This document shows, one piece after another, positions 5,435 to 63,848 of a DNA stretch of 64,000 nucleotides. The DNA comes from a virus. The DNA lies in IMG/VR virus record IMGVR_UViG_3300045988_180980; one strand, given 5' to 3'. Made by a program: the position numbers and the translations under genes. The stretch's first letter is position 1. Each line of letters begins with the position of its first letter. The notes below the pieces were generated by a model, which did not search any database, was not told the origin of the DNA, and saw only the letters and a list, made by a program, of their open reading frames with translations.

Positions 5435-6052
5435 ATGGGATGGTCATCAATTTATACTGGCAGACTTACAAGCCAGGAGAAGAAACAGAGAATAGATAGA
5501 GTAAGAACGTGGGAAAACGAAGAAGTTGTAAAGAGTTGCATGGTAGGTACAACCTATTATGCGGCAGTGAGGAGAAAGGACGATGGTGCTGTTTATGCCG
5601 TAGTGGCTCTTACACAGCTGGAGGAAGGCGAGTTCGGTTTTAAGGATATATCCGAGATTTGCGGTCCAGTTGAAGAGAAATGCCCTGTAGGCATCTTGAA
5701 GTTACTTTCGCCCACCGACGATAAACTTGCGCAAGAATGGAGAAAGAGATGCCTTGAGAATCATGAAGCACAGCTTCGATTAAGACGATTGAAAAAAACT
5801 TCTCTTACAGGCTTTATAATTAAAACGGCGCAAGGTTATGTGTCAAAAATCACAAAAGTTCATCTGTTTTTGGGCGACTCTTACTTTGTTTGGCCGACAA
5901 AAGAGGAAGCTGAAAAAATGGTCTCCGAACTGATAGATTTAGGCCATGGTGAGCTGTCTCCTACTGTGTGCGAAGTGAAACGGCTCTCGCCTTCTTCGCC
6001 TTGGGTGTTAACGAACATTGGACACGATGTCACAGGTGGCAGTGTGGTATAG
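5435..6052 (+). CDS. hypothetical protein
   Basis: 205-aa ORF behind a box. Confidence 0.6.
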   Translation: MGWSSIYTGRLTSQEKKQRIDRVRTWENEEVVKSCMVGTTYYAAVRRKDDGAVYAVVALTQLEEGEFGFKDISEICGPVEEKCPVGILKLLSPTDDKLAQEWRKRCLENHEAQLRLRRLKKTSLTGFIIKTAQGYVSKITKVHLFLGDSYFVWPTKEEAEKMVSELIDLGHGELSPTVCEVKRLSPSSPWVLTNIGHDVTGGSVV

Positions 6053-34498: not shown

Positions 34499-34690
34499 TC
34501 ACACCCCGTGCTGCAGCCGTATTCTTCGTGCATATCCCTTCTCCACCAACCCTTCCTCCGTCATCTCATTGCCGTCGGCATACCATTTCCCGTTGACCAG
34601 CGTCACGGGACGGGTGAACGTGAGTGCGTGTTGCGCTTTGCTGCACCTCGTCAGTGTTTCCTCGAGGTACGCGATGAAGTTATCTTCCAT
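34499..34690 (-). CDS. hypothetical small protein
   Basis: 63-aa ORF, the last gene of the - strand island. Confidence 0.4.
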   Translation of the reverse strand: MEDNFIAYLEETLTRCSKAQHALTFTRPVTLVNGKWYADGNEMTEEGLVEKGYARRIRLQHGV

Positions 34691-34701
34691 TGTGTATCGT
34701 G

Positions 34702-35299
34702 TCAGTTAAACCATTTCACTATTGTCTCGCCTTTGTACCCCTTCTCCCATACGAACCATGCGTAGGCCGCTGCGCTGCTGCCGTACCTGTCGAAGTCGCC
34801 ATTCATAGCGCATTTCAGTCGTGACGAACTTACCCAAACGCGGATGGGGGGGGGGGGTAGATTTGAACAGCGCGTGTCGGGCTTTGCCTTCCAGGAAAGT
34901 CAGCTTCAGGAACATCGCCACCTTCTTACCTTCTGGAATGATGCTCAGAGCCTTCTCCACAAACTGCTGCGCATATTTGTAGGGCGGATTGGTAACGATG
35001 TTGCCGTCCCACGCCAAATTATCAATAGCGAGAAAGTCAGCCACCTCGCCATAACCTCTATCCACAAGGTCGCGGCTCACCACCTCATACCCTGCTGCCT
35101 CCAACACCCTACTCATGTGACCCTCGCCACACGAAGGCTCAAGAATCCTGCCCTCAAACCGCTCCAGTTTGCACAGCCATTCCGTAGCTTTCGGTTCTGT
35201 GGCATAGTAATCCTCCCGCTGCCGTTCCGCGTCCGTATGATTGCTTGCGCCCAACGTCTTGAATACAGCGGCCGAACCGCCTACCCAGTCCTTTACCAT
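34702..35299 (-). pseudogene. NPPY-type N6-adenine DNA methyltransferase interrupted by a 12-nt homopolymer (frameshifted or phase-variable)
   Basis: Motif I ILEPSCGEGHMS and motif IV IVTNPPYKY are present. After the C12 run (minus strand) the annotated frame reads as junk. Removing one C gives IRVWVSSSRLKCAMNGDFDRYGSSAAAYAWFVWEKGYKGETIVKWFN, stopping at 34702. AGGAGG lies 6 nt before the ATG. Confidence 0.75.
34846..34857. repeat. G12 homopolymer (C12 on the coding strand)
   Basis: cggatGGGGGGGGGGGGtag. The 598-nt span from 35299 to 34702 is not a multiple of 3. Confidence 0.95.
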
Positions 35300-35361
35300 T
35301 GTGAACCTCCTTTCTGCATTTAATTGAATAGTTCATATCTTTATGAATTTGTTACTCATTT

Positions 35362-35522
35362 ACCCAACCCATCAATGGTTTTCACCCAACCCTTCAATGG
35401 GTGTTTTTTTGTTAAGAGCCGACTCTTTTGATGAAAAGAGCCGACTCTTTTGATAAAATCAATCGGCTCTCCGTTTTTTTTTGTGCTATACCTATTGTTT
35501 TCTGAAACTATACCTATTGTTT
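35362..35522. repeat. Repeat-dense spacer: three different direct-repeat pairs
   Basis: ACCCAACCC(A/T)TCAATGG at 35362 and 35384. AAGAGCCGACTCTTTTGAT at 35414 and 35436. CTATACCTATTGTTT at 35486 and 35508. AGAGCCGA/TCGGCTCT hairpin plus a T9 run at 35438-35482. Confidence 0.8.
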
Positions 35523-35550
35523 GCCTATAGGTATAGGCATCCCTCAAGCC

Positions 35551-35591
35551 AAACAGATACTTCTGTTTACCTCAAACAGACACTTCTGTTT
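35551..35591. promoter_or_regulatory. Two palindromic 18-mers AAACAGA(T/C)ACTTCTGTTT (operator-like)
   Basis: Copies at 35551-35568 and 35574-35591, separated by ACCTC. The same word occurs 4 times at 63762-63848. Confidence 0.75.
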
Positions 35592-35600
35592 ATGTTCCGC

Positions 35601-36404
35601 TCATTCCGTATCATTCGTCGGCTCAGGATTCGTCAATTCGCTTTCTTCCATGTGCCCGTGTCTAATCACATCCTCCTCGTCCTTCTCTTCCATATACTCG
35701 AAGTAGTCCGGCTCCTCCTCGCGCTTGTCGCCGAACATCTCGTCATCCTCTATCTCCTGCAGGTCCTTGGTGGTGAGACCATACTTGCGGGCCATGCGCA
35801 ACTTCTCCTCCTCGGTATAGTTCACACGGTCGCGCTTCACGATGCTCACGTCCTGCGTGATGGCAATGCGGCTCATGTCCGGCATCTCGTCCGTAGCGTC
35901 GCGCTCCTCGTCGAAGTCCTTATACACCTTGGCAAGAGCCTCCATGCCCTTGGCCACGGCACGGTCGTTGTTCTGCTGCTTGCCCGTGCGGATGAGCCAT
36001 TCTGCCGAACCCAGGAACATTGCCTTGTGGCGCGGACTCTCGTCGGTCTGGAAGAAGCGAATCAGATGGTTGCACACCAGCACGTCGTTGTTGAGCTCCG
36101 TCACGGTGCGCGGACAGATGTTTCCCTCGTCGTCCACGGTAATCTTCAGCGCAAGCACCATGGCCTGCGCGTCCCGTTTGCCCTGCGCGGCCTGGTTGAG
36201 GAACAACTCATAGTCGCGCCGTGCGATGTTGCGGCACACGGTGCGCGGGTCGATGTCGCGGTTCTGCGTCCACCGCTTATAAAACTCAGAGCACACCTGC
36301 ATGCGGTAGCGCTGCTCCAGCTTGGGGAAAGCCGCCTCCATGCTCGTGCCGTAGCTCAGCCACTTGTCTATGCGGCTGAGGGTTCTCTCGGTCAGTCCTG
36401 ACAT
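35601..36404 (-). CDS. hypothetical protein with acidic C-terminus
   Basis: ORF 35601..36497 trimmed to the ATG at 36404 (MSGLTERT...), which lies behind a TATATTTG box on the - strand. Confidence 0.55.
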   Translation of the reverse strand: MSGLTERTLSRIDKWLSYGTSMEAAFPKLEQRYRMQVCSEFYKRWTQNRDIDPRTVCRNIARRDYELFLNQAAQGKRDAQAMVLALKITVDDEGNICPRTVTELNNDVLVCNHLIRFFQTDESPRHKAMFLGSAEWLIRTGKQQNNDRAVAKGMEALAKVYKDFDEERDATDEMPDMSRIAITQDVSIVKRDRVNYTEEEKLRMARKYGLTTKDLQEIEDDEMFGDKREEEPDYFEYMEEKDEEDVIRHGHMEESELTNPEPTNDTE

Positions 36405-63761: not shown

Positions 63762-63848
63762 AAACAGATACTTCTGTTTGGCACGAACAGATACTTCTGT
63801 TTACCTCAAACAGATACTTCTGTTTGGTATGAACAGATACTTCTGTTT
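63762..63848. promoter_or_regulatory. Four palindromic 18-mers (A/G)AACAGATACTTCTGTTT (operator array)
   Basis: Copies at 63762, 63785, 63808 and 63831, with a regular 23-bp spacing. They lie between the -7 box and ATG 63891. Confidence 0.8.

Follow-up and report, generated by a model that had tools for sequence, protein, structure and literature searches.

We propose that a homopolymer in the 64,000-nucleotide viral sequence IMGVR_UViG_3300045988_180980 from IMG/VR (the whole stretch is called the window in the following) is a hypermutable, slipped-strand tract, i.e. a contingency locus, in the gene of an orphan methyltransferase with an NPPY motif. We assign this reading a probability of about 0.7. 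The tract consists of twelve G on the plus strand, corresponding to C12 on the coding minus strand, and splits the gene at positions 34846-34857, as the sequence-only reading of this DNA had noticed. In the window the gene is OFF as sequenced, C12 being one base past the in-frame length of 11. As in contingency loci, an uninterrupted repeat within an open reading frame (ORF) sets the frame and its length is polymorphic among near-identical genomes (C5 to C10, and C12). In this phage clade the tract changes length by gain and loss of bases much more rapidly than the remainder of the gene evolves, and the last 47 codons are thereby thrown in and out of frame. Sequence comparison supports slippage at the level of the phage lineage, whether the true count in this one assembly is 12 or 11. 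The parts of the gene are as follows:

34858-35299, minus strand: N-terminal part of the methyltransferase gene, with the ATG at 35299, 147 codons and the first base of the codon for Thr148; encodes EPSCGEGH and TNPPY
34846-34857, minus strand: C12 homopolymer (G12 on the plus strand), the putatively hypermutable tract, forming the end of the Thr148 codon and proline codons; C5 to C10 in relatives
34702-34845, minus strand: C-terminal part of the methyltransferase gene, 47 codons (IRVWV...KWFN) and TGA, one base out of frame as sequenced
34706-35299, minus strand: ORF as sequenced, 197 amino acids, of which 151 are genuine and 46 are out of frame

The sequenced ORF reads across C12 into a 46-residue out-of-frame tail without homology. 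The in-frame tract lengths are 8, 11 and 14, and every other length is out of frame. Repair to C11 or C14 lets the frame go on as IRVWVSSSRLKCAMNGDFDRYGSSAAAYAWFVWEKGYKGETIVKWFN to a stop at 34702, the C-terminal frame beginning with IRVWVSSSRL and ending with AYAWFVWEKGYKGETIVKWFN; this reproduces exactly the repair suggested in the sequence-only reading. The protein matches PHROG 799 'DNA methyltransferase' with E = 2e-68. Once repaired to 198 residues it does so over residues 3-198 with 232.6 bits, and as sequenced over residues 3-152 only with 175.8 bits. This gain of 57 bits with the repaired C-terminus indicates that genuine, homologous coding sequence for 46 residues continues beyond the tract in a different frame, and the claim that a genuine methyltransferase is split only by the tract is borne out. 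The N-terminal part reaches 98.6% amino-acid identity to the N-terminal parts of homologues. The as-sequenced 197-residue product itself had no record in an exact look-up, and an exact-flank search of IMG/VR returned no match to the allele of the window. Within the window the tract stands alone: a 12-base G run occurs once, and 100 dinucleotide-preserving shuffles produced no such run. There are 181 G/C runs of length 4, 12 of length 5, two of length 6, none of 7-11 and one of 12. G12 is the sole G/C run of at least 7 bases across the 64 kb, in which A/T runs extend to 9, and G/C runs outside G12 are strongly avoided.

The assignment of the enzyme as an NPPY amino-methyltransferase (N6-adenine type, with gamma-like motif order) is sound. 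Motif I, EPSCGEGH, at residues 54-61 is followed by motif IV, TNPPY, at residues 102-106, in the order motif I and then (N/D)PP(Y/F). Residues G63, N109, P110 and P111 are invariant across 30 homologues, in the numbering of P0001, an intact homologue with 94% identity. The family is large, with more than 7,900 homologues, and the best 120 of these are mostly intact, 196-199 amino acids long and 76-94% identical. Pfam gave nothing above cut-off (Methyltransf_23 18.4 bits, cut-off 27; Dam 13.5 bits, cut-off 28.1), NCBIfam no match and a sequence search of the PDB no significant match. An AlphaFold model of P0001 (predicted local distance difference test, pLDDT, 71; predicted template modelling score, pTM, 0.75) was compared to known structures with Foldseek, which found M.TaqI (1aqj, E 1.8e-5, TM 0.52), M.BseCI, CamA and HsdM and also the tRNA/rRNA m6A enzymes TrmM, TrmN and METTL5. 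Judged by this model, the protein has a fold resembling class I S-adenosylmethionine (AdoMet) methyltransferases, the fold of N6-adenine DNA methyltransferases. DNA is the substrate predicted at the level of annotation. The Thr-Pro-Pro residues encoded by the tract form a turn between a helix and a strand in the model, and the 47 codons after the tract correspond to three core strands and two helices. Since these codons encode core elements of the predicted fold, the frame-shifted product should be inactive.

Close homologues all read ...LF(R/K)STPPIRVWVSSSRL with two prolines; the normal state of the family is therefore two prolines (C8) and not three, and C12 in the window corresponds to an expansion by four bases. 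At 81 related IMG/VR loci the tract is ACC CCC CCC (C8) in 24 cases, interrupted (ACC CCA CCC etc.) in 29 and ACT CCC CCC in seven. Distant homologues from Firmicutes prophages and other sources encode Pro-Pro by mixed codons without a homopolymer, which indicates that the homopolymer is derived and clade-specific. Complete scans of IMG/VR with fixed identical flanks around the tract, which are neutral with regard to frame, found C7 (-1) in 12 contigs, C8 (in frame) in 21, C9 (+1) in 11 and C10 (out of frame) in one; C6 was also observed at least twice and C5, which is in frame, once. A metagenome scan with a pattern needing at least 9 C added 12 further C9 contigs. According to the contig names, SPAdes coverage of C9 contigs includes 346x, 113x, 38x, 25x and 17x. 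The comparison of tract length among related genomes that the sequence-only reading had proposed hence turned up C5 to C10 at the same site and recurrent changes of frame. C12 is the longest version seen, and neither IMG/VR nor the metagenome collection yielded another tract of 11 or more C. A more distant homologue (67% identity) on a contig binned as Oscillospiraceae (L277:4001-4593) has GCC CCC CT at the tract site, where it is shifted by -1, and suggests that shorter C-runs slip in another clade as well.

With the shifted product as the query, a protein search recovered about 76 clusters of +1-shifted proteins in ENA, Logan, JGI and NCBI; some lie on contigs of 50-100 kb and some are labelled Prevotella. 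Such products appear in the databases as plain hypothetical proteins assigned to Prevotella or Alloprevotella, and P0015, P0129 and P0193 carry misleading source names on phage-sized contigs, for example 'Escherichia coli MAG' (metagenome-assembled genome) or 'NAD(P)-dependent oxidoreductase'. The 38 closest N-terminal matches to the window are all +1, and we considered that its clade might be fixed in this frame, which would point to recoding. This idea was rejected because the queries were biased to at least 9 C or to the +1 tail. Clustering at 90% identity moreover inflates the number of +1 clusters and hides in-frame members in large clusters such as that of P0001 (1229 members).

Rapid change is indicated by genomes that are otherwise alike. 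In some pairs of genes the tract is the only difference, the remaining 579 nt being identical (C9/C8, C9/C7, C10/C9 and C7/C8), and two contigs with C10 and C9 (L092 and L104) have no mismatch over 9,604 nt, the tract being the sole indel. A neighbor-joining tree of 86 unique alleles needs at least 22 changes into or out of frame and at least 28 changes of tract length. The tract is the site of breakage in 31 of these 86 alleles, and another site in two (one nonsense mutation, one N-terminal frameshift). All 34 out-of-frame alleles have kept the C-terminal frame open and conserved; among them its ratio of nonsynonymous to synonymous substitution rates (dN/dS) is 0.082 compared to 0.11-0.13 in in-frame alleles and 0.076 for the N-terminal part. 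When the window is compared to its nearest relatives, the C-terminal part has a dS of 0.3-0.5, a dN of 0.009-0.018 and a dN/dS of 0.02-0.06. These values point to strong purifying selection on the downstream frame. OFF alleles are common and yet all young, which is consistent with rapid, probably reversible slippage together with long-term selection on the full-length protein.

Two controls address whether these length differences are biological. In a frame-neutral sample drawn from the matches listed by a broad variable-gap scan, which also returned many unrelated loci and was used for this control only, uninterrupted tracts were in frame in 21 cases and out of frame in 26, whereas interrupted ones (CCCCACCC and similar) were in frame in 19 cases and out of frame in one (Fisher p = 8.6e-5). 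When 28 aligned segments of near-identical genomes were compared (at least 99.3% identity over at least 2 kb), the length differed in 16 of 23 G/C runs of at least 7 bases versus none of 195 A/T runs of 6-8 bases. Constant A/T runs beside variable G/C runs are not the signature of a sequencing platform with general homopolymer problems. Single miscounts cannot account for changes of two bases (C10, C6, and C7 versus C9 in otherwise identical genes) or for the four additional bases of the window. Identical C9 alleles recur in separate assemblies (L084, L088 and L096; L085 and L087). An account based on error only would need more than half of the consensus sequences with uninterrupted tracts to be wrong.

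Several observations weigh against a switch at this site. C8 is short for a classical phase-variable tract, and an interrupted, stable tract is present in about 40% of alleles, so that the homopolymer is not universally kept. In-frame expanded alleles (C11, C14) were absent from IMG/VR and the metagenome collection. The activity of the enzyme and the fitness trade-off are both points that we infer. A warning about indels in public contigs comes from L311 and L312, assembled by Logan from two runs of one study (ERR4087905 and ERR4087902): over 20,564 nt they have no mismatches but seven single-A deletions in short A-runs, which in L312 split the terminase gene and other genes and are most likely sequencing or assembly errors. 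Some differences in tract length between assemblies could be technical too, although the interrupted-tract and run-type controls oppose this as the main cause, and several seemingly independent contigs may derive from repeated assembly of the same samples.

With regard to the window itself, the most serious alternative is a miscount during sequencing or assembly, with a true tract of 11 (or 14) bases and an intact methyltransferase carrying one extra proline. We consider this possible, though on the improbable side. Long G/C homopolymers such as G12 are error-prone on every platform, and the true consensus of the window could be 11; obvious homopolymer indel errors occur in some public contigs of this phage group, and the exact as-sequenced product was found nowhere else. 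An in-frame C11 would also be structurally plausible, as the additional proline would fall into the helix-strand loop of the model, and an in-frame contraction (C5) exists. However, a miscount covers about one base at most and would leave the tract 3-4 bases above any relative, so that the expansion would be real. An out-of-frame consensus is found in the majority of the relatives' uninterrupted tracts, high-coverage assemblies included. The long ORFs of the window (1853 and 1222 amino acids) are unbroken, and inspection of positions against the ORF list, as opposed to a dedicated split-gene scan, revealed neither an A/T run of at least 8 bases nor any other homopolymer that breaks an ORF. Even if the length in this assembly were wrong, the locus would be hypermutable all the same and its nature would not change. 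Somewhat less probable, plausible but in our view rather unlikely, is a tolerated mutational hot spot without a role in switching, in which a C-run arose by chance from Thr-Pro-Pro codons, slippage repeatedly inactivates a dispensable accessory gene, and OFF genomes are dead ends constantly re-seeded from ON genomes. The many interrupted tracts and the shortness of C8 agree with this, as does the fact that ACC and CCC are the most frequent Thr and Pro codons of the window genome; with all OFF alleles being young, a source-sink picture fits as well as reversible switching. On the other hand, OFF consensus sequences make up over half of the uninterrupted alleles, in many hosts and samples, which would be hard to reach without a local advantage. 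C7 and C9 on identical genes are two steps apart and imply that the tract has passed through C8 or returned to it, another gene of the cassette has the same type of tract with in-frame +3 variants, and G/C runs are avoided in the rest of the window.

The conserved C-terminal frame might also be explained by programmed recoding, in which +1 ribosomal frameshifting on CCC-C or transcriptional slippage on the C-run yields the full-length enzyme from the +1 allele, so that the gene would not truly be OFF. The tRNA-Pro slips on CCC-N and polyproline stalls ribosomes. Both properties would favor recoding, as would the strong purifying selection on the C-terminal part of out-of-frame alleles and the fact that C12 in the window and C9 in the four nearest relatives known both amount to the +1 frame. 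This uniform neighborhood is an ascertainment artefact, however, since these relatives were retrieved by a pattern of at least 9 C or a query with the +1 tail. In the frame-neutral IMG/VR scans, -1 alleles (C7, 12 contigs) are as common as +1 alleles (C9, 11 contigs) and in-frame C8 is the commonest (21 contigs). Interrupted in-frame alleles abound, the out-of-frame arrangement is not conserved in relatives, and the presumed shift site has neither a stop nor a rare codon and no upstream stimulator. We therefore regard recoding as very improbable. Least probable of all is a dead pseudogene, inactivated long ago and decaying. The frame is indeed broken as sequenced and often broken in relatives too, and an invariant G12 with further decay in relatives had been named as the mark of such a gene. 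Instead, the C-terminal frame is open and conserved in every out-of-frame allele, dN/dS is 0.08 overall and still lower between the window and its relatives, and lesions outside the tract are confined to two of 86 alleles. These findings, and the youth of the common OFF alleles, refute decay and leave it next to no probability.

If the tract is a contingency locus, slipped-strand mispairing at the C-run would toggle the methyltransferase ON and OFF. Phages in the ON state would methylate their own DNA and escape host restriction-modification of matching specificity, and those in the OFF state would avoid the cost or liability of the mark, for example methylation-dependent restriction. Progeny of mixed states would thus hedge between hosts, and slippage should be more frequent at a run of 12 bases than at C8 in relatives. 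Toggling of phage DNA methylation as a counter to host restriction is the likely function by analogy, chiefly with agt of phage T2. The sequence-only reading had compared the locus to a phasevarion. The regulon under the control of methylation that this term implies is not supported. Restriction or specificity genes (Res, HsdS, HsdR) are absent among the neighbors of the methyltransferase, which are proteins of 267 and 63 amino acids and the adjoining terminase, and the enzyme is for this reason considered an orphan and not a member of a Type III or Type I restriction-modification system. Homopolymer switches of methyltransferase genes are a classic theme in bacteria, and in phase-variable mod genes (Type III modA/modH; Type I hsdM/hsdS with simple repeats, for example PMC7383803) a repeat within the ORF toggles a methyltransferase by slipped-strand mispairing. 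However, these are chromosomal restriction-modification genes whose switching re-programmes host gene expression, whereas the enzyme of the window is a 198-residue phage protein and implies no regulon.

Homopolymer switching in phage genes is already described. Contingency loci have been reported for agt of T2 and rIIA of T4 (Gomez, Barrick and Waters, bioRxiv 10.1101/2025.10.21.683753), and the A-run in agt, a DNA-modification gene, trades off two restriction systems. The T-even loci, whose +/-1 frameshifts are frequent and reversible, resemble the one described here in that a mononucleotide run in a phage ORF changes the frame, in the case of agt also in a DNA-modification gene. They differ in that the runs are A-runs of about 9 bases, agt encodes a glucosyltransferase, and rates were measured experimentally in cultured coliphages, whereas the present locus is a G/C run in a methyltransferase gene of uncultured gut phages that is known from consensus sequences of natural populations alone. 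As cited in the same preprint, Fletchervirus phages of Campylobacter have hypermutable poly-G tracts of 7-11 bases within ORFs (Sorensen et al. 2021, Cell Rep 35:109214). According to this description these tracts create phenotypically different subpopulations and affect receptor-binding proteins, so that host range varies rather than DNA modification. A likeness in gene type, going by the description in the preprint, is offered by Bordetella phage BPP-1, for which a homopolymeric G tract in a methylase gene was noted and not studied further (Liu et al. 2004, per 10.1101/2025.10.21.683753). For phages of Bacteroidota our literature search found no report of homopolymer switching, in line with the statement of the sequence-only reading that the mechanism is not recognized there.

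Phage contingency loci have been demonstrated experimentally only recently, in laboratory coliphages and Campylobacter phages. The present locus would extend them to uncultured, widespread phages of the human gut and to an epigenetic gene, with the variation visible in public metagenomes. Its interest lies mainly in the unusually clear evidence from natural populations and in the multi-gene pattern within a common group of gut phages. There is also a practical implication: what viral catalogues list as frame-shifted 'pseudogenes' at G/C runs may in fact be alternative states of a gene, and their automatic repair or rejection would then discard biology.

The multi-gene pattern concerns the cassette in which the methyltransferase is found in relatives. 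Just upstream of the methyltransferase gene, a gene for a phosphoadenosine phosphosulfate (PAPS) reductase-like protein (L081:2063-2791) has a poly-G tract of its own, G4-G9 near residue 182, with in-frame +3 as well as out-of-frame variants. Orthologues with this tract are present in L008, L011, L023-L026, L035, L040, L045, L083, L113 and others, while the window is without the gene. Of 77 loci examined, 21 have the gene split, and its tract seems to be another hypermutable one within the cassette. As tracts occur in both the methyltransferase and the PAPS-reductase-like genes, variable G/C tracts appear to be a property of the DNA-modification island and not of one gene. We tentatively propose, at slightly less than even odds, that abundant Prevotella phages of the human gut have a multi-gene contingency system with independent G/C tracts in the methyltransferase, the PAPS-reductase-like and possibly the radical S-adenosylmethionine (radical-SAM) genes. 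If so, each burst would sample combinations of DNA-modification states as a form of bet-hedging against host restriction and modification-dependent defences, and a population in which more than half of the genomes are OFF and yet every OFF allele is young would be the natural signature of such a strategy.

Close to the radical-SAM and PAPS-reductase-like genes, other G/C runs (L082:5697-5703 and 5854-5862; L090:6434-6441, compared to L032 and L001) vary in length between identical or near-identical genomes, with the variants G7/G8, G9 followed by A5/A4, and C8/C6. Over 6.6 kb L082 and L032 are free of mismatches, and the three indels between them all fall at such runs. Poly-C tracts of 9, 10 and 19 bases are also seen at one site, CGGATATT-Cn-TCAAAAGA (L021 at about 5263 on the minus strand, L022, L122:7659), which is apparently non-coding and lies near the cassette in relatives.

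In the window, the methyltransferase gene belongs to a small minus-strand cassette that adjoins the terminase gene and includes the following features:

35601-36404, minus strand: conserved upstream gene of the same cassette, 267 amino acids, 85% identical to the gene at 141-947 of L081
35359-35592, no strand assigned: intergenic region upstream of the methyltransferase with four different pairs of direct repeats of 15-22 nt, spaced 22-23 nt
34499-34690, minus strand: small downstream ORF, 63 amino acids, starting 12 nt past the methyltransferase stop and conserved in the nearest relatives

The 267-residue protein is a homologue of the product of the first modification-cassette gene in relatives, and the small ORF, MEENFIAHLEETL, follows the methyltransferase gene in L094 and L102 as well. 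Neither of these two neighbors has a match in Pfam or PHROG. The order in relatives is a gene for 268 amino acids, a radical-SAM gene (phrog_9298), a gene for a PAPS-reductase-like PP-loop protein (PF01507) and the methyltransferase gene; the cassette of the window is without the radical-SAM and PAPS-reductase-like genes. The content between the 268-residue gene and the methyltransferase (35300-35600 in the window) varied when L081, L082, L102 and L311 were compared. The window has nothing there, some relatives have the radical-SAM and PAPS-reductase genes, and L102 has about 1 kb of extra sequence. In L311 the interval is taken up by an HU-like gene, a PAPS-reductase gene of greater length and an ORF of 98 amino acids.

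A nucleotide search with the gene region against 50,697 GenBank phages gave no match, and the terminase has GenBank phage relatives of only 25-30% identity, namely phages of Porphyromonas, Polaribacter and Microcystis; a cultured relative for comparison is hence not available. The closest relatives (at least 72% amino-acid identity) are contigs of 50-100 kb binned with MAGs of Prevotella, Prevotellaceae or Bacteroidaceae, and one shifted product is annotated as Prevotella sp. Based on this binning the host likely belongs to the Bacteroidota, and the window probably represents an uncultured gut phage with Prevotella as its host.

Scans for consensus promoters and terminators around the cassette gave nothing above chance. 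Some of the direct repeats in the intergenic region of about 300 nt upstream of the methyltransferase are internally palindromic, and judged by sequence they may be candidate operator-like or regulatory sites. One of their motifs, AAACAGATACTTCTGTTT, occurs again in four copies with a 23-nt period at 63762-63848, at the far end of the window, and L094 contains a perfect match to 40 nt of this array.

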